7,995 bases of DNA from a virus (taxonomy: Duplodnaviria > Heunggongvirae > Uroviricota > Caudoviricetes): the IMG/VR virus record IMGVR_UViG_2671181134_000012; one strand, written 5' to 3'. Shown here one piece after another: positions 1 through 6,015 of the stretch (the first letter of the stretch is position 1; every line of letters starts with the position of its first letter). Below the pieces are notes generated by a model, which had not been told where the DNA came from, did no database searches, and saw only the letters and a program-made list of their open reading frames with translations. The translations under genes and the position numbers were made by a program.

Positions 1-1239
1 ATGAGCAGGGCAATTCATAGACTTAGCGACACTCTTTTACGAAAATTAAGCGGATCACCAACCACAAAAAACACCTTTTTTAATGATGGTGGCAACCTTA
101 GCGTAAGGCATTCAACCAATGGCCTGTTAACCTGGTATTTCACTTACAGGGCCGGAACAGGCAGGAAGGTAGCCCCTGAACGTCTGAGGCTGGGAAATTA
201 TCCAGATTTGAGCCTGAAAGCAGCCAGGGAAAAAGCGTCGCAGTGTCGCGCCTGGCTTGCTGAGGGTAAAAATCCACGCCATGAGCTTAATCACACCGTA
301 CAGGAAGCGTTATCACCTGTTACGGTTAAGGAAGCGCTCACTTACTGGCTTGAATCGTACGCGAAGGAAAAGCGCACAGATTACGAATCTCTGAAAAGCC
401 GGATCAATACACACATAATCAGCCATATTGGTGCTATGCCGCTGGAAAAATGCGAGCTACGCCACTGGCTGACCTGTTTTGATCAGCTTGCTAAGCGTAA
501 TCCGGTATCAGCAGGATTTTTGTTACAGGTATGCAAGCAGGCGCTTAAGTACTGCCGCAAACGACGCTACGCAATTACCAACGTTCTAGATGATATGGTT
601 GTAGGTGATGTTGGGAAAAAAGCAGAAATAAGCGAGCGCATACTAACAAACAAGGAGCTTGGGGAATTACTCCGCGCCCTGGATGAAAAAATTTACCCAC
701 CGTACTACAGCGCCCTGATTCGCCTCCTGATTGTCTTCGGATGTCGTACCACTGAGCTAAGACGCTCTGAGGTCCAGGAATGGGATTTTAAAGAAATGCT
801 CTGGACCGTGCCGAAAGAACATAGCAAAACGAAGGTAGCAATATTCAGGCCAATACCGGAAGCGATCTTGCCGTTCGTAACGAAGCTGGTGGAGCAGAAC
901 AGGCACACGGGATTATTGCTCGGAGAACTGAAAGGGCAATCATCCGTATCAGAGTACGGAAGAACGGCACACAGACGTATTAATCAAGCCCCCTGGACGT
1001 TGCACGACATCCGGCACACGTTTACAACGATGCTGAACGATTTAGGCGTGGATCCTCATGTAGTGGAGCAGCTAACCGCGCACCAGTTGCCAGGAATGCA
1101 ACGAGTCTATAATCACTCCCGTTATCTTGATGCAAAACGTGACGCTCTTAATCTATGGGTTGAGCGTCTCGAGCTTCTCCAGAACAATGATGAAAAAATC
1201 GTTGTTATGACCCCGCGAATTTACTCCCAAAATTCTTGA
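1..1239 (+). CDS. int: Tyrosine site-specific integrase, P4-like (N-terminal arm-binding domain plus catalytic domain)
   Basis: 412-aa ORF starting at ATG 1. The N-terminal region (LSDTLLRKLSG...WYFTYR...GNYPDLSLKAAREKA) resembles the DUF4102-type arm-binding domain of P4-family integrases. The C-terminal region carries tyrosine-recombinase motifs (GCRTTELRRSE, HDIRHTF, and a candidate catalytic Tyr in RVYNHSRY). Family assignment is by recognition, not a search. Confidence 0.92.
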   Translation: MSRAIHRLSDTLLRKLSGSPTTKNTFFNDGGNLSVRHSTNGLLTWYFTYRAGTGRKVAPERLRLGNYPDLSLKAAREKASQCRAWLAEGKNPRHELNHTVQEALSPVTVKEALTYWLESYAKEKRTDYESLKSRINTHIISHIGAMPLEKCELRHWLTCFDQLAKRNPVSAGFLLQVCKQALKYCRKRRYAITNVLDDMVVGDVGKKAEISERILTNKELGELLRALDEKIYPPYYSALIRLLIVFGCRTTELRRSEVQEWDFKEMLWTVPKEHSKTKVAIFRPIPEAILPFVTKLVEQNRHTGLLLGELKGQSSVSEYGRTAHRRINQAPWTLHDIRHTFTTMLNDLGVDPHVVEQLTAHQLPGMQRVYNHSRYLDAKRDALNLWVERLELLQNNDEKIVVMTPRIYSQNS

Positions 1240-1316: not shown

Positions 1317-1648
1317 TATGTGTCAAGTATTGAAAAAATTTGAAATGTCTTCTTCTGAGTTCTTATTCTCTGTTTCTTGATTGTTCCAACACCTGATGGT
1401 TTATCTATTTGTTTTTAATGAGATAATTTAAGTGTAATACCAAATGACGACATTTTTTTGTTGCGTCGCTTAAAAACTCGTGACACGATTTTATGAACAG
1501 CAGCAAACTCTAGCGAACTTTGACGAACATAAAGTTCAGAAAGGTTACGTATTCAATTTAAGAGGTAAGAAAAGCTAGGAAGTAATATCTTTCCGTATAT
1601 CCACAGCGAAACAAAAATTTCTATACGTAATTTTATGTAGGACTTTTT

Positions 1649-1858
1649 ATGCGCGAAATAAATGAAGATCGTGTAATCCGCGAAAAAGAATGCAGAGAGC
1701 TAACAGGCGTTTGCCGCACAACTCGTTACGAGATGGAAAAGCAGGGCCGCTTCCCCTCACGTATCAGTCTCGGCGGTCGTTCTGTTGGCTGGGTTAAGTC
1801 TGAGGTTATGGAATGGGTTAAAAGCAGAAATCGTATTAATTCAGGTAAGGCAGCGTAG
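1649..1858 (+). CDS. alpA: AlpA-family phage transcriptional regulator / excisionase-like protein
   Basis: 69-aa ORF with AGGA 6 nt upstream of ATG 1649. The sequence (CRELTGVCRTTRYEMEKQGRFPSRISLGGRSVGWVKSEVMEWVKSR) matches the recalled AlpA hallmark pattern (FP..I.LG.R.VGW...EV..W). The position directly after a P4-type int is the usual one. Confidence 0.88.
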   Translation: MREINEDRVIREKECRELTGVCRTTRYEMEKQGRFPSRISLGGRSVGWVKSEVMEWVKSRNRINSGKAA

Positions 1859-1884
1859 GGGGAACATATGACACATAAAACAAA

Positions 1885-1904
1885 GGCGACCTGTGGCGGT
1901 CGCC
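1885..1904. terminator. GC-rich hairpin (GGCGACC tgtggc GGTCGCC) between convergent alpA and the minus-strand RHH gene; candidate bidirectional terminator
   Basis: 7-bp perfect stem with 6-nt loop. On the minus strand it is followed by a T-rich tract (complement of AAAACAAA at 1877-1884); on the plus strand the downstream tract is A-rich. It therefore looks better as a terminator for leftward transcription. Confidence 0.45.
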
Positions 1905-1992
1905 AATGGGAAAACACTAAACATAAGCCAGAACATCATAGCGATTTGCTGTCTGGTGGGCAATGTGCTCAGTGTGCTGGCTTGCTGGTGGG

Positions 1993-2172
1993 CTATTCCT
2001 GCTCTTTGGCCTTGCGGCGCTGGCGGCGTTTGATTTCGCCTTTAACGGCAGTAACTATAAATTGCGCTTTGCTTTCACCTTCATCTAAATTTTTTTCTAA
2101 GTCTGCAACAACATCATGCGGGAATCTGGCATTTAACTGTTGCGACTTATTATTTGTTGAACCTGTTGCCAT
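1993..2172 (-). CDS. Ribbon-helix-helix (Arc/MetJ/CopG-like) DNA-binding protein, 59 aa
   Basis: Minus-strand ORF; preferred start is ATG at 2172 (complement) with AGAGGA 7 nt upstream. The track start at 2211 is GTG. The translation (QQLNARFPHDVVADLEKNLDEGESKAQFIVTAVKGEIKRR) aligns by eye to Arc repressor (FNLRWPREVLDLVRKVAEENGRSVNSEIYQRVMESFKK). Basic C-terminal tail. Confidence 0.65.
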   Translation of the reverse strand: MATGSTNNKSQQLNARFPHDVVADLEKNLDEGESKAQFIVTAVKGEIKRRQRRKAKEQE

Positions 2173-2192
2173 TACTGAATCCTCTCTAAGTT

Positions 2193-2285
2193 GGTGCGAT
2201 TCAGTATACACAAAAAAAATTCAGAGAAAAGGCTTGAGGTGCGATTCACTTGCTGATAGGTTAAAAACAGATGGTGCGATGCACC
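2193..2285. promoter_or_regulatory. Three copies of GGTGCGAT in the divergent intergenic region (2193-2203 GGTGCGATTCA, 2238-2248 GGTGCGATTCA, 2273-2285 palindrome GGTGC-GAT-GCACC); candidate operator array
   Basis: Repeats read directly. Copy 1 lies between a candidate minus-strand -10 (TATACT, complement of 2203-2208) and the RHH gene's ribosome-binding site, which is the arrangement expected for autoregulation. Confidence 0.45.
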
Positions 2286-2362
2286 AAATAACAACGCCCC
2301 GCAGTGGTGGCACACATGCAGGGCGTCTAACAACCAACGATAGCAACAGTATCGAGGTAGCT

Positions 2363-2566
2363 ATGTTAAATCATACCACACACCCGCAAGGGCGGGACTC
2401 GCACAACCTGAATAAATACATCTGGCGTTTTATCGCCCTGAGCACGGCACAACCGCGCGTGATTACCATCGAGGCCACCAGCGAACAGGAAACGCGTCAG
2501 CAATCTCCTGATGGCTGCGTGATGGTATTCGCCGCCCGTATTCGTCAGGGGGTGTTCCATGCCTGA
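2363..2566 (+). CDS. Hypothetical small protein (67 aa), first gene of a three-gene cassette
   Basis: ATG 2363 is preceded by GAGG with a 5-nt spacer. It is in frame with a long upstream open frame (1868-2566) that I consider non-coding. An alternative in-frame ATG at 2279 would give 95 aa. The stop TGA 2564-2566 overlaps the next start (ATGCCTGA). Confidence 0.5.
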   Translation: MLNHTTHPQGRDSHNLNKYIWRFIALSTAQPRVITIEATSEQETRQQSPDGCVMVFAARIRQGVFHA

Positions 2567-2879
2567 CATGACCAATTACCAGTACCTGATTAATCCGCAT
2601 TTTAACTGTGAGCATGATATTGCTAAAAAAGTTTATTCCGCTGCGGATGGGGCTACTGACAATATATCAATGGGTATTGCGTCAATTGGTAGCCTGATGT
2701 GGCATGCGTCAGAAAATAAGGAATATGACGAAAAGACCATGCGCATTGATATGGGTAATATCGGTTTGTTACTGGCAATGCTTGGGCAGTTTGATATTTC
2801 GTTACGGTGCACCATTGAAAATGCCACAGATGCATTAAATGCTATAAAGAAAGCGAATACTGATTCAAATCGGGGATAA
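2559..2879 (+). CDS. Hypothetical protein (106 aa), second gene of the cassette
   Basis: ATG 2559 overlaps the stop of the upstream ORF (translational coupling), with a G-rich SD-like stretch upstream. The protein has ordinary globular composition and no recognised motif. An alternative start is ATG 2568. Confidence 0.6.
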   Translation: MPDMTNYQYLINPHFNCEHDIAKKVYSAADGATDNISMGIASIGSLMWHASENKEYDEKTMRIDMGNIGLLLAMLGQFDISLRCTIENATDALNAIKKANTDSNRG

Positions 2880-2885
2880 ATAATC

Positions 2886-3185
2886 ATGAGAACTTATTTA
2901 TCTGGCTTGACTGCCAGCGGTTATGCACACCCCAAAATTATCCCCGGCGCTATTTATCTGGATAAGAACGGTAACAGAGTAACGGTAAAAGAACTGATGT
3001 TTGACCGTGTGTATTTTATCCGTGATGGCTATTCATTTCATAGTTCGCTGAACGTGGAGATCTTTATTAGCAGATTCAGGCGGGAAATCCCGCTTTCCAG
3101 AAATAACCATGTGTCATGTATCGATGTTGATAAAAAACTACAGGAACTGAAAAACATGATTGCCGCGTGGAGAGAGCAGAAATGA
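2886..3185 (+). CDS. Hypothetical protein (99 aa), third gene of the cassette, directly upstream of the primase gene
   Basis: ATG 2886 with GGGGA 9 nt upstream. The stop TGA 3183-3185 overlaps the primase ATG 3182 as ATGA, a classic coupling arrangement. No recognised motif. Confidence 0.6.
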   Translation: MRTYLSGLTASGYAHPKIIPGAIYLDKNGNRVTVKELMFDRVYFIRDGYSFHSSLNVEIFISRFRREIPLSRNNHVSCIDVDKKLQELKNMIAAWREQK

Positions 3186-4999
3186 AAAAAGCGCCAAATT
3201 TAAAACACCAGCCACGTGACAAAATGACGGAAGTCATCATTTTTGCGGGTAGTGATGCGTGGGCACATGCGAAGCAGTGGCAGGAACAGGACGGGCGACT
3301 GGCTGGCGATAACGTGCCACCTGTCTGGCTTGGAGAGCAACAACTTGCCGAACTGGACAACCTGCAAATCGTACCGGACGGACGCTATCGCGTGCGTCTC
3401 TATCAGGCGGGGTTATTGAGTCCGGGGCTTGTTAATACCATCGGGCAGAAACTGGCAGTGGCAGGTGTCAGGGATGCTGATTATTACCCTGAAGGAATGC
3501 ACAGCCAGAAACGGGAGAACTGGCGCGAATATCTGGAACGTGAACGGGCAGAGCAGGCGGAAAAGAAAAAGGTAGTTGAACTGCCTGTAAAGAAAAAAGA
3601 GCGGGTAAAAGACGATAACGCTTCATCACTGGCGCTTAACCAGATGGGAGCAAGTCAACGCGGCGAAGTTCTCCTGGCACATTATGGCGGTGAACTGGCG
3701 ATTCATGCTGACTCTGACACTGTTCACTATTACAACGGCGTTGTATGGGAGCCAGTACAGGATAAAGAATTACAGCGAGCTATGGCACAGATTTTCATTG
3801 ATGCGGAGATCAGCTATTCGCAGAACGCCATTAAATCGGCGGTCGATACCATGAAGTTAAGTTTGCCTGTAATGGGGAATACAGCCCGTAACCTGATTGG
3901 ATTCAGTAACGGTGTTTTTGATACCCGGACAGGCGATTTTCGGGAGCATAACAAAAACGACTGGTTGTTAATTGCCAGTGAATTACCTTTCAGCCCACCA
4001 GCAGAGGGGGAAACGCTGGCAACACATGCGCCGAATTTCTGGAAGTGGTTACGCCGTTCGGTGGCTGAGAATGACCGCAAGGCGGATCGCGTACTGGCTG
4101 CATTATTCATGGTGCTGGCGAACCGGTACGACTGGCAGTTATTCATTGAGGTAACAGGTCCAGGGGGAAGTGGTAAAAGCGTGATGGCGGAGATTTGCAC
4201 CATGCTGGCGGGTAAGGCCAACACGGTATCGGCAAGCATGAAGGCGCTGGAAGATGCCAGGGAACGCGCGTTAGTGGTTGGCTTTTCGCTGATTATCATG
4301 CCGGATATGACCCGTTACGCTGGTGATGGCGCAGGAATTAAGGCCATTACAGGCGGTGACAAGGTGGCAATCGACCCGAAGCATAAAGCCCCCTACTCAA
4401 CACGCATTCAGGCGGTAGTGTTGGCGGTGAACAATAACGCCATGTCATTCAGTGACCGCAGCGGGGGGATTTCACGTCGTCGGGTGATATTCAATTTTTC
4501 GGAGGTTGTACCGGAAAACGAACGCGACCCCATGCTGGCAGAAAAAATAGAAGGAGAGCTGGCGGTTGTGATTCGCCACCTGCTTACTCGTTTTTCTGAC
4601 CAGGACGAAGCTAAACGCCTGCTGTATGAGCAGCAGAAATCAGAAGAAGCTCTGGTGATAAAACGCGAGGGCGATTCGCTGGTGGACTTCTGCGGCTATC
4701 TCATGTCGTCGATAATGTGTGATGGTCTGTTAGTGGGTAATGCCGAAATTATTCCGTTCAGTCCGCGCAGGTATCTTTATCACGCCTATCTGGCATATAT
4801 GAGGGCACACGGATTCGGTAAACCTGTAACACTGACGCGCTTCGGTAAAGATATGCCGGGGGCAATGGCGGAATATGGCAGGGAGTATATGAAACGGAAA
4901 ACGAAGCACGGTTTGCGTTCAAATGTGACCCTGACAGAGGATTCAGAAGACTGGATGCCATCATGTGCATCGGTCACAAATGACGATGGAAAAAATTAA
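3182..4999 (+). CDS. Replication initiator: P4 alpha-like primase/helicase (D5_N-like region plus SF3 helicase NTPase domain)
   Basis: 605-aa ORF from ATG 3182 (the track's 3167 start is GTG). It carries Walker A (TGPGGSGKS), a hydrophobic stretch ending in Asp (LVVGFSLIIMPDM) as Walker B, and the SF3 motif C asparagines (LAVNNNAMSF). This architecture matches the P4-family phage/plasmid primase C-terminal domain. A TGTTCACC iteron array lies immediately downstream. The N-terminal ~150 aa are not assigned. Confidence 0.85.
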   Translation: MKKAPNLKHQPRDKMTEVIIFAGSDAWAHAKQWQEQDGRLAGDNVPPVWLGEQQLAELDNLQIVPDGRYRVRLYQAGLLSPGLVNTIGQKLAVAGVRDADYYPEGMHSQKRENWREYLERERAEQAEKKKVVELPVKKKERVKDDNASSLALNQMGASQRGEVLLAHYGGELAIHADSDTVHYYNGVVWEPVQDKELQRAMAQIFIDAEISYSQNAIKSAVDTMKLSLPVMGNTARNLIGFSNGVFDTRTGDFREHNKNDWLLIASELPFSPPAEGETLATHAPNFWKWLRRSVAENDRKADRVLAALFMVLANRYDWQLFIEVTGPGGSGKSVMAEICTMLAGKANTVSASMKALEDARERALVVGFSLIIMPDMTRYAGDGAGIKAITGGDKVAIDPKHKAPYSTRIQAVVLAVNNNAMSFSDRSGGISRRRVIFNFSEVVPENERDPMLAEKIEGELAVVIRHLLTRFSDQDEAKRLLYEQQKSEEALVIKREGDSLVDFCGYLMSSIMCDGLLVGNAEIIPFSPRRYLYHAYLAYMRAHGFGKPVTLTRFGKDMPGAMAEYGREYMKRKTKHGLRSNVTLTEDSEDWMPSCASVTNDDGKN

Positions 5000-5010
5000 A
5001 CTTATGGAAT

Positions 5011-5241
5011 AACTGTTCACCACTGTTCACCCTGCAATAAATGTCTTTTATATCAGTATATTATAGGGTGAACAGTTATTTATGAACTGTTCACCAAACT
5101 ATTCACTGTTCACCTTTTTGATTCTTTATTGAGCTTTAAGGGTGAACAGTGGTGAACAGTTGGTGAATAGTTTTTGTGAAACTATTCACCCCTTAACATC
5201 ATGAATAAAAAGGGAAAATTGCAAAAGGTGAACAGGTGAAG
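5011..5241. repeat. Iteron array / candidate replication origin: at least 8 perfect and several degenerate copies of TGTTCACC (GGTGAACA) in both orientations
   Basis: Perfect copies on + at 5013-5021, 5023-5031, 5087-5095 and 5106-5114; on - at 5067-5075, 5141-5149, 5151-5159 and 5227-5235. Degenerate copies at 5162-5172 and 5180-5190. The 22-mer AACTGTTCACCACTGTTCACCC (5011-5032) is the exact reverse complement of 5140-5161. There are two inverted pairs with 7-nt spacers (5067-5095 and 5162-5190) and an AT-rich stretch at 5033-5066. Confidence 0.8.
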
Positions 5242-5286: not shown

Positions 5287-5526
5287 GTGACAACGAAGCA
5301 CGCCAAAAAACCACAATCTCACGCCCTTGATTTGACAGAACACTGGCTGAGGGTGGCGATAAAAATCATCGACCGCAACGCCGGGGAAGGATACGCGAAA
5401 GCACATCCCGAACTGATAAGCGCATTCATGACCACGACGGCGGCAAACTTTGCCACGCTGACAGAACGGGAGATTGCCGAAGCGGAACAGGTAACAACCA
5501 TCAACGTTAAAAGCGCTGGAGAATAA
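5287..5526 (+). CDS. Hypothetical protein (79 aa, GTG start)
   Basis: GTG 5287 with GAGG 8 nt upstream, followed by an intrinsic terminator. The overlapping minus-strand ORFs have Cys/Ser-rich antisense-like composition, so the + strand is preferred. Confidence 0.5.
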   Translation: MTTKHAKKPQSHALDLTEHWLRVAIKIIDRNAGEGYAKAHPELISAFMTTTAANFATLTEREIAEAEQVTTINVKSAGE

Positions 5527-5544
5527 CCGAAGTAGTGAACACAT

Positions 5545-5568
5545 AGCCGGAGCAATCCGGCTTTTTTT
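5545..5568 (+). terminator. Rho-independent terminator (AGCCGG agcaat CCGGCT followed by TTTTTTT)
   Basis: 6-bp GC-rich stem, 6-nt loop and a 7-T run, read directly, 19 nt after the stop of the 79-aa ORF. Confidence 0.7.
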
Positions 5569-5602
5569 CGATCTCGCATATCTTAAAAAATGGTTGATTG
5601 AT

Positions 5603-5608
5603 TATAAT
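5603..5608 (+). promoter_or_regulatory. Candidate -10 hexamer TATAAT for the downstream small-ORF / terS / capsid operon
   Basis: Consensus TATAAT about 50 nt upstream of GTG 5657, with an A-tract upstream. No convincing -35 was found, so this is tentative. Confidence 0.3.
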
Positions 5609-5656
5609 CTATCGAAAATACTGATTATTAGATGATAAGCATCAGGAGGAAACAAA

Positions 5657-5851
5657 GTGGAACAGATAAAGCAAAGCGCTACCGTGATGATTGATCACGA
5701 GATCCTAAACGAGCTTAAAAAACTTCAATTCGATGTTATTCGCCGGATGAATGAAGCTGGTATATACGGCAGAGCCGCCACGCCAACAGTAGGCCATCTT
5801 GCTCGCGTGCTGTTACGCGAACGCCTGGGCATTGCAACAGGTGAGGAATAA
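5657..5851 (+). CDS. Hypothetical small protein (64 aa, GTG start), possibly DNA-binding
   Basis: Strong SD (AGGAGG, 5643-5648) 8 nt upstream of GTG 5657. The N-terminal segment (SATVMIDHEILNELKKL) has a strand-then-helix pattern that could be RHH-like, but this is weak. Confidence 0.5.
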   Translation: MEQIKQSATVMIDHEILNELKKLQFDVIRRMNEAGIYGRAATPTVGHLARVLLRERLGIATGEE

Positions 5852-5853
5852 CA

Positions 5854-6015
5854 ATGGCTATCACAGAACGCGAGGCAAGCATCATTAAAGCCATTGGCGA
5901 GGAAACAAGAGACACGATAGCGCCATTAATGGAAAAGATCGCAGAGCTTGAGAGACGAATAAACAAGCTGAGTGATGAAGTTGAAGGCCTGATCTCGTTA
6001 CTCGGTGAGCAATGA
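5854..6015 (+). CDS. Hypothetical small protein (53 aa), predicted helical / coiled-coil; absent from the supplied ORF track
   Basis: ATG 5854, 2 nt after the stop of the upstream ORF, with GAGGAA just upstream. The translation (MAITEREASIIKAIGEETRDTIAPLMEKIAELERRINKLSDEVEGLISLLGEQ) has heptad-like hydrophobic spacing. It is a short ORF, so coding status is uncertain. Confidence 0.4.
   Translation: MAITEREASIIKAIGEETRDTIAPLMEKIAELERRINKLSDEVEGLISLLGEQ

Follow-up and report, generated by a model that had tools for sequence, protein, structure and literature searches.

In an Escherichia coli phage satellite, a chain of three small open reading frames (ORFs) that leads into the primase gene may be gated by a cis-antisense RNA encoded opposite the start of the first ORF. 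The satellite was found in IMG/VR record IMGVR_UViG_2671181134_000012, a stretch of 7,995 nucleotides of Caudoviricetes DNA that is called the window here. It is of the phage-inducible chromosomal island (PICI) type and carries int, alpA, a primase gene, an iteron origin, a small terminase gene and a capsid gene. The candidate RNA, termed the R1 element, is about 80 nt long, lies on the minus strand and is complementary to the 5′ untranslated region (UTR), the Shine-Dalgarno (SD) sequence (GAGG, 2354–2357) and the start codon of ORF1. Judged from its sequence, a functional minus-strand RNA element probably exists at this place, and we infer that it is expressed; the chances that such an antisense RNA would gate the chain are put at about even. 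The favoured reading makes ORF1 a leader cistron, gated by the RNA, from which translation would be handed on to the primase; it is held with somewhat better than even confidence. A conserved candidate cis-antisense RNA in the place of a P4-type CI/C4 RNA appears to be new and more important than the ORF2 family, the definition of which appears to be new as well. In the part of the literature that was covered we know of no prior description of this candidate, and Rfam does not contain it. The cassette itself is of an already known kind, namely the early operon of a PICI in which Icd-like and RgdR-family genes are present.

Alleles, junctions and leaders were compared in about 80 IMG/VR sister loci, and since these were fetched through similarity to ORF2 or ORF3, the conservation seen among them is partly a product of the retrieval. 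The minus-strand R1 sequence has a minimum free energy of -32.8 kcal/mol (z=-3.7). The ~70 nt before the ORF1 ATG are conserved even where everything further upstream has been replaced, and they contain two hairpins. The first of these, HP1, is GC-rich and changes its sequence between alleles while its pairing is kept, with double-sided changes in 10 of 13 pairs of a 35-sequence alignment. In 500 shuffles none was as good, sliding the partners lowered the paired share to 33–52% (about 95% unslid), and RNAalifold, run independently, predicts the same helix. The orientation was also compared: 93.7% of the cells are paired when HP1 is read as a minus-strand RNA vs 83.9% as a plus-strand RNA, the loss coming from 43 G-U cells that are A-C mismatches when the plus strand is read. 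Behind HP1 on the minus strand, a T-rich tail with 4–8 T per 10 nt follows in all alleles, for example GGGGCTTTGCTTTTTT in Sakai, and no T-run follows HP1 on the plus strand. HP1 and its T-run are therefore read together as a putative intrinsic terminator of the antisense RNA.

The second hairpin, HP2, abuts the SD sequence. Its stem is invariant or compensated, as in the distant L162, in which CGATA/TATCG is replaced by CGTTA/TAACG, and its 7-nt loop has 10 variants among sister loci. HP2 is the putative kissing-loop and specificity determinant of the pair formed by mRNA and antisense RNA. The linker TCTAACCACCAAC (2328–2340) between the hairpins is nearly invariant in all leader types, even in those with differing hairpin sequences, and might possibly serve Hfq binding, RNase cleavage or the enhancement of translation. 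A candidate extended -10 promoter, TGGTATGAT, is situated on the minus strand inside ORF1. In the window-type alleles its hexamer is TATGAT, TATAAT or TATTAT, so that His4 of ORF1 changes and the hexamer is retained. Across four leader types, three of them with differing N-terminal peptides, -10-like hexamers (TGGTATGAT, TATAAT, TATGCT or TAGAAT) are found at the equivalent spot, at a fitting distance for a promoter of the candidate RNA.

A covariance model of the R1 element was built from the leader alignment. It gave a minus-strand match in all 31 sources searched (two in L079) and also matched loci outside the training set, including the distant L158, L160 and L161 at 40–43 bits. In 14 of 14 inspected cases, the match falls at the ATG with which an Icd-like leader ORF begins. 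The Sp7 version of the element is at NC_002695.2 1597420–1597513, on the minus strand. The model had no match in P4. In Rfam, searched with the window, only spurious plant-miRNA matches on the origin iterons were returned and no family fits the R1 element. The arrangement found is one that would suit a cis-antisense RNA, namely a structured element on the opposite strand that has a terminator-like hairpin and is complementary to the ribosome-binding site of a leader ORF.

There is hardly any doubt that the three ORFs under this candidate control are genuine genes. The frames of 67, 106 and 99 aa described in the original prediction are present at their places, and the RefSeq Prokaryotic Genome Annotation Pipeline (PGAP) calls the identical three coding sequences (CDSs) in E. 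coli chromosomes. Among distinct alleles of the sister loci, 42 of 43 are intact for ORF1, 56 of 56 for ORF2 and 51 of 51 for ORF3; frameshifts and stops in relatives, which had been named as the sign that the region is not coding, are thus few. The ratio of nonsynonymous to synonymous polymorphism (pN/pS), pooled over sister alleles, is 0.54 for ORF1, 0.36 for ORF2 and 0.33 for ORF3. SD-like purine runs (GAGG, GGGGG and GGGGA) stand 6–10 nt before the three ORFs in turn. The chaining of the ORFs up to the primase by overlapping stop and start codons was borne out to the nucleotide: the 8-nt overlap of the ORF1 stop and the ORF2 start, ATGCCTGA at 2559–2566, is kept in 74 of 75 loci, and the ATGA (3182–3185) shared by the ORF3 stop and the primase start is kept in 73 of 73. 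ORF2 and ORF3 do not overlap and are separated by a 6-nt spacer (TAA ATAATC ATG). The three ORFs would accordingly form the promoter-proximal and, as we infer, translationally coupled front of a PICI early/replication operon.

The original prediction had recognised no motif in these ORFs, and this was overturned by the profile searches, the family assignments of which hold with high confidence. ORF1 matches the Icd-like family NCBIfam NF033153 over residues 19–62 (E=5e-18, 64.8 bits vs a cutoff of 25) as well as phrog_6196 (E=6e-44), and ORF3 matches Pfam DUF4222 (61.1 bits vs a cutoff of 27). The PGAP name for ORF1 is "host cell division inhibitor Icd-like protein", and P1 icd suggests, by analogy, that ORF1 probably inhibits cell division. 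With its 67 aa and the overlap ATGCCTGA to the next gene, ORF1 has the trait of a small first cistron that belongs to the Icd-like family. When ORF1 was searched against the phage database by tblastn, one induced PICI-like record was found. The G5 run at 2546–2551 is also the SD sequence of ORF2, and the entries P0003 (which represents 36 sequences) and P0158 fuse ORF1 and ORF2 in frame (…ARIRQGCAMPDM…). These fusions are consistent with the loss of one G from GGGGG; an error in sequencing, slippage that occurs naturally or a fusion that is tolerated could account for them. Furthermore, the ORF1 frame is open far upstream, stop-free from 1868 (232 codons) in the window and for up to 695 codons in sister loci, those with a long open frame including L008, L035, L039, L077 and L079. 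The extended frame runs antisense through ylcI and through isrK and C4 RNA genes, its third codon positions coincide with those of ylcI, and annotators at times call it a gene (ECs_1576 in Sakai; a 256-aa gene in L158).

In the mechanism proposed, transcription would enter the chain from upstream, by an AlpA-dependent promoter or by read-through, and ribosomes would have to initiate on ORF1 as the leader cistron; its translation would open ORF2, ORF3 and the primase gene to both ribosomes and transcription. The 8-nt overlap, the 6-nt gap with its own SD sequence and the 4-nt overlap would hand translation from one cistron to the next. The antisense RNA would be transcribed leftward from the -10 inside ORF1 codons 3–6, run from ~2363 to ~2285, cover the SD sequence and the start codon and end at the HP1 terminator. 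It would block initiation on ORF1, as C4/CI RNAs would in sister elements, instead or in addition, and thereby silence the whole chain. When initiation is blocked, Rho-dependent termination may come into play on the exposed transcript as well, as it does in P4. A layer of transcriptional repression may be added by the divergent YlcI-like protein together with the three GGTGCGAT(T/G)CA repeats. As to the products, a cell-division inhibitor or a toxic effector is proposed for ORF1, and for ORF3 an accessory factor that would bind nucleic acid or polymerase and be tied to the primase.

If true, an RNA gate that recurs across the PICI-type loci examined and can be swapped for P4-type C4/CI modules would bear on how Gram-negative PICIs stay silent. 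Satellite replication would have a concrete point of control, the presence of an Icd-like ORF at the head of the chain in all loci examined would be explained, and the compatibility of co-resident satellites would gain a molecular basis. A wider version of the model is offered tentatively, as less likely than not. In it the antisense RNA, the YlcI-like protein and the three repeats would together be the negative control of Gram-negative PICI replication until AlpA-driven transcription outruns the RNA; the variable 7-nt loop and the equally variable terminator stem would sort co-resident satellites into incompatibility or immunity groups, which would be interchangeable with C4/CI modules; and ORF2 and the DUF4222 protein would be dedicated partners of the primase N-domain. 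If the RNA is not expressed, the finding shrinks to an ordinary, already catalogued PICI early operon.

Several observations weigh against an RNA-gated leader cistron. No -35 was found for the antisense promoter and a consensus promoter scan did not flag the site, and the plus-strand promoter of the chain was not located. The T-runs, with their 4–8 T per 10 nt, are interrupted. Since the sister loci are kin to one another and were fetched on similarity, the covariation counts overstate the independent events, and the covariation of HP2 is thin, with one or two double changes. On the side of the proteins, the constraint on ORF1 is modest, given its pN/pS of 0.54, the AlphaFold2 (AF2) model of ORF2 (four helices, all-helical) is unreliable with a predicted local distance difference test score (pLDDT) of 54, and ORF3 has no RGD motif but P20-G21-A22 at residues 20–22. 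The hairpin region might instead be a leader structure of the plus-strand mRNA, the target of a trans-acting C4-type RNA of another element, or an insulating terminator that protects ylcI. The plus strand folds well too (z=-3.1), C4-type RNAs exist in sister elements, and a minus-strand terminator ahead of ylcI could block leftward read-through. We nevertheless consider these options unlikely. A plus-strand structure is disfavoured by the 43 G-U cells that turn into A-C mismatches and by the missing T-run behind the hairpin, and the C4 RNAs of sister loci have no significant complementarity to the window leader (RNAduplex z -0.6 to -2.0, in a crude full-length test). An insulator would still need leftward transcription from inside the plus-strand operon and, because this transcription would begin there, also implies an antisense transcript. 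It is very improbable that ORF1 is only the C-terminus of a 232-aa protein (1868–2566) of the Icd-like kind whose N-terminal extension is long. [quoted passage not shown] However, the extension is antisense across the well-supported ylcI gene, at least seven allele types hold a 65–67-aa ORF only, a good SD sequence precedes the ATG at 2363, from which PGAP calls the 67-aa form, and in every leader type, that of L158 included, it is the short start at which the R1 element lies.

Two other explanations concern what the cassette does rather than how it is controlled, and both may well coexist with the gating of the operon by the RNA. In the one, the cassette would be an abortive-infection or superinfection-exclusion module, in which a phage protein triggers the chain and the Icd-like protein, with the linked genes including the primase gene, stops the growth of the infected cell. 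A prophage-borne cluster of ECOR61, with an Icd-like gene, a primase gene and linked genes, triggers cell death, an effect that was lost once the Icd-like gene had been removed (Silas et al., bioRxiv 10.1101/2023.04.06.535777); the gene set of the window is of the same kind. But it is by the kind of gene set that the ECOR61 locus is likened to the window, and the PADLOC-DB v2 defence models had no match for ORF1, ORF2 or ORF3 at E<=0.1. The same phenotype could come from satellite induction and runaway replication, which impairs growth by itself (PMC6092414), and replication control would account equally well or better for the operon position and the coupling to the primase, so that a defence module is regarded as improbable. 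In the other, ORF2 and/or ORF3 would manipulate the helper or modulate replication through protein-protein contacts, for instance with the primase N-domain, like P4 epsilon (helper derepression) or Cnr (primase inhibitor). ORF2 and ORF3 are positionally equivalent to the P4 epsilon and ORF106 slots, and ORF2, ORF3 and the primase N-terminus stay one block with an invariant ATGA junction despite the D5/DUF927 swap. Against this stand the lack of any detectable homology to epsilon or ORF106 (hhalign probability <1%) and the fact that RgdR-type and window-type DUF4222 proteins, which are 31–37% identical, pair with nearly the same primase N-domain and so do not co-evolve tightly with it. An epsilon- or Cnr-like role is therefore doubtful, if less so than a defence module, and the RNA-gated leader cistron remains the favoured account.

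The leaders of related elements contain other RNA devices. In the window, no C4 or isrK RNA was matched in Rfam at E<=1. Sister alleles with the same ORF2, ORF3 and primase carry an Rfam C4 RNA (RF01695; 72–82 bits) plus isrK or c4-a1b1 in the leader, an immunity RNA of the P4 CI/seqA type, the C4-bearing loci being L033, L035, L053, L063, L079 and L082. In L035, L053, L063, L079 and L082, an isrK-C4-Icd-like unit is inserted past the first 18 codons of a window-type ORF1, and the R1 element and a C4-type RNA therefore stand in tandem in one leader. Two copies of C4 are present in L082 and two copies of the R1 element in L079. Because alternative RNA devices occupy the same leader, the Icd-like cistron would be the control point of the chain. 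Matches of C4/isrK in some Gram-negative PICIs have already been noted (PMC10111431), and in P4 the replication genes are blocked via CI/seqA/seqC control (PMC4825925).

Gram-negative PICIs have been described as having no known repressor. In the window, the divergent YlcI/YnfO-family protein has a ribbon-helix-helix-like sequence pattern (QLNARFPHDVVADLEKNL…SKAQFIVTAVKGEIKRR) and, with the fold so suggested, would be a candidate for repressing the chain. In the intergenic region of ylcI and ORF1 stand three direct repeats, GGTGCGAT(T/G)CA, to which the YlcI-like protein or AlpA might bind as operators. The third repeat forms a palindrome, TGGTGCGATGCACCA, which together with TCTGTTTTTA resembles a terminator and is the second such site of the minus strand.

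The closest comparison is with P4. Its 65-aa Icd-like ORF, at the end of the old "cI ORF" and after the CI RNA, matches NF033153 at 76 bits, is of the same family as ORF1 and overlaps epsilon by 8 nt as ORF1 overlaps ORF2; we take it to be the kil gene. The P4 order is Icd-like ORF, epsilon, ORF151, ORF106 (106 aa and ahead of alpha, presumably cnr) and alpha, so that ORF2 stands in the slot of epsilon and ORF3 in that of ORF106. The equivalence of position to the helper-manipulating genes of P4, proposed in the original prediction, therefore stood, down to the overlap and the slots, but a homology of ORF2 or ORF3 to epsilon or ORF106 did not. In blastp, ORF2 and ORF3 had no match better than E=0.8 to epsilon, ORF151 or ORF106, and hhalign gave a probability <1% for the ORF2 family against epsilon and ORF106 and for DUF4222 against ORF106. 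In both systems the replication genes lie behind a leader acted on by an RNA, which in the window is a candidate only. Unlike P4, however, the window is without C4/CI or isrK/seqA, as P4 is without the R1 element, and it is a PICI-type satellite with its own small terminase (TerS) and capsid, not a P4-like one.

The candidate also resembles other leader-gating systems. The P1 immI operon (c4, icd, ant1/2; its composition was confirmed) likewise has an Icd-family first cistron. P1 icd is reportedly coupled to its downstream gene and gated at the ribosome-binding site by a small antisense RNA, from the work of Riedel, Heinrich and Schuster in 1993–94. But C4 is trans-acting and processed from a transcript of the same strand, whereas the window candidate is on the opposite strand, and the downstream gene in P1 is an antirepressor, where the window has replication genes. 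In CopA/tap/repA of plasmid R1 and RNAI/repY/repZ of IncI/IncB plasmids, a short cis-antisense RNA blocks a leader ORF that is coupled to the replication initiator, and in copy control of this type the loop sequence of the antisense RNA sets the specificity. The window candidate, to judge from its sequence, would similarly be a stem-loop RNA opposite the leader ORF of a replication chain. It has no sequence relation to these plasmid systems, though, its leader ORF is a conserved 67-aa Icd-like protein and not a dispensable peptide, and two more genes separate the leader ORF from the replication protein. In the immI region of P22 (mnt, arc, ant, sar), a cis-antisense RNA of ~70 nt lies over the ribosome-binding site of the downstream gene. 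The window shares with it a divergent small repressor-like gene (mnt in P22, ylcI in the window), operator repeats and a candidate cis-antisense RNA, but the regulated gene of P22 is an antirepressor. The ECOR61 cluster, compared by description only, shares the Icd-like gene, linked small genes and a DNA primase with the window and differs in that its Icd-like gene is described as bearing a lengthy extension at the N-terminus (Silas et al., bioRxiv 10.1101/2023.04.06.535777).

ORF2 matches phrog_15327 (E=2e-71), to which no function is assigned, and profile and sequence searches revealed no relative in Pfam, NCBIfam, PADLOC or the PDB. Sequence searches of the PDB with the three ORFs and the ORF2 family profile also gave nothing significant. 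Close homologues of ORF2 are limited to E. coli and its neighbours. An exhaustive profile search yielded a thin family of ~100-aa proteins that share G.S.IG.LMF.A...Y....DM..IG, and two distant members occupy the equivalent slot in other satellites, the order of which is int, alpA, (Bro), Icd-like, small ORFs, ORF2 homologue, small ORFs, DUF927 primase, capsid. Members of the family are confined to this slot in the operon of int-alpA-primase satellites. No relationship was detected by hhalign between the ORF2 family and ECs1580 of Sakai. With ORF2, a new small-protein family is opened to functional study.

ORF3 is 31% identical over 99 aa (E=1e-12) to RgdR/ECs1581 of the prophage Sp7 in enterohaemorrhagic E. 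coli (EHEC) Sakai. RgdR (ECs1581; EHEC O157:H7 O-island 51 / Sp7) is likewise a DUF4222 protein of 99 aa and overlaps the primase of a capsid-encoding PICI by ATGA (ECs_1581 at 3720–4019, primase from 4016, in L004). Published work has shown that RgdR alters host transcription: it activates LEE1 and type III secretion (T3S), represses motility and binds DNA non-specifically (PMC3378721). At residue 20, a natural CGD variant gave no T3S activation and C20R restored it, while R20C in ECs1581 itself raised T3S slightly (PMC3378721). ORF3 differs from RgdR in having PGA for RGD and is a member of a separate RgdR subfamily, and many hosts are without LEE. The RgdR family has been described as present in all analysed E. 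coli PICIs. The AF2 model of ORF3 (pLDDT 74, from a 15-sequence alignment) has a five-stranded small barrel and a C-terminal helix, and the predicted fold is a small SH3/KOW/Tudor-like barrel plus helix. In the satellite, ORF3 would be a replication or transcription accessory factor. RgdR, so far known as an EHEC virulence regulator only, is thereby placed in its native context, fused to a satellite primase. A tblastn search of the phage database with ORF3 returned no match, and a contig scan using the DUF4222 alignment found one locus, the derived patterns being too narrow.

Among the retrieved sister loci, ORF2, ORF3 and the first ~110 primase codons form a block that is 93–100% identical, and the remainder of the replication protein is exchanged between a D5 type and a DUF927 type. 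Because the first ~110 residues are near-identical in D5/P4-type primases and DUF927-type proteins (window 3182–3520; L001 10583-; L004 4016-), the recombination point lies inside the gene and the N-domain travels with ORF2 and ORF3. Upstream of the block, the leader, ylcI and alpA are a mosaic. Variable small-gene cargo, as suggested in the original prediction, is therefore not what ORF2 and ORF3 represent in these loci. It is in more distant PICIs that the middle slot, and only this slot, varies. The middle slot is variable everywhere, and Sp7 of Sakai, the layout of which is homologous to the window element, has three different, unrelated small ORFs there (in the order Icd-like gene ECs1577, the three ORFs, RgdR, primase). 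The recombinants L082/L083 join ORF2 to an RgdR-type DUF4222. Throughout the E. coli and Shigella loci that were examined, an Icd-like ORF opens the chain, and the DUF4222 gene at its far end is fused to the primase. The genes ahead of the primase in the distant elements L158 and L162 gave no Pfam match.

The features of the window are collected in Table 1. They comprise what characterises Gram-negative, capsid-forming PICIs, that is int, alpA, a primase gene, an iteron origin behind it, packaging genes and rightward transcription. AlpA is the activator of Gram-negative PICI cycles (Fillol-Salom 2018, PMC6092414). In E. coli chromosomes (RefSeq), the same element occupies the cspD/clpS site, adjoining cspD/yljB. 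A blastn search of the phage database with window 1600–3400 returned no matches. The iteron field behind the primase is almost certainly the satellite's origin.

Table 1. Features of the 7,995-nt window, in order of position.
Feature	Position	Strand	Description
Integrase gene	1–1239		
alpA	1649–1858	+	Pfam Phage_AlpA, E=8e-18; three-ORF chain lies downstream
ylcI/ynfO-family gene	1993–2172	-	Divergent; NCBIfam NF041551, E=2e-17; PGAP 59-aa CDS
Direct repeats GGTGCGAT(T/G)CA	2193–2203, 2238–2248, 2273–2283		ylcI–ORF1 intergenic region
R1 element (candidate cis-antisense RNA)	2284–2364	-	~80 nt; complementary to ORF1 5′ UTR, SD and start codon
HP1	2294–2326	-	GC-rich hairpin; T-rich tract 2293–2284 follows on minus strand
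HP2	2338–2354		CGATA-(7-nt variable loop)-TATCG; abuts SD
ORF1	2363–2566	+	67 aa; Icd-like, first cistron
Candidate extended -10 promoter TGGTATGAT	2370–2378	-	Inside ORF1 codons 3–6
ORF2	2559–2879	+	106 aa; uncharacterised helical family
ORF3	2886–3185	+	99 aa; DUF4222 / RgdR family
P4-family primase/helicase gene	3182–4999	+	Start ATG 3182; D5_N, DUF5906, Pox_D5 (domain-library matches)
Iteron field	5007–5236		At least 9 copies of GGTGAACAGT, both orientations, directly past primase stop
Small terminase and HK97-like capsid gene			Among window genes

Past the origin, three further small ORFs are present at 5287–6015, of 79 aa (phrog_1231), 64 aa and 53 aa. None of the three has an assigned function, and the 64-aa and 53-aa ORFs almost abut.

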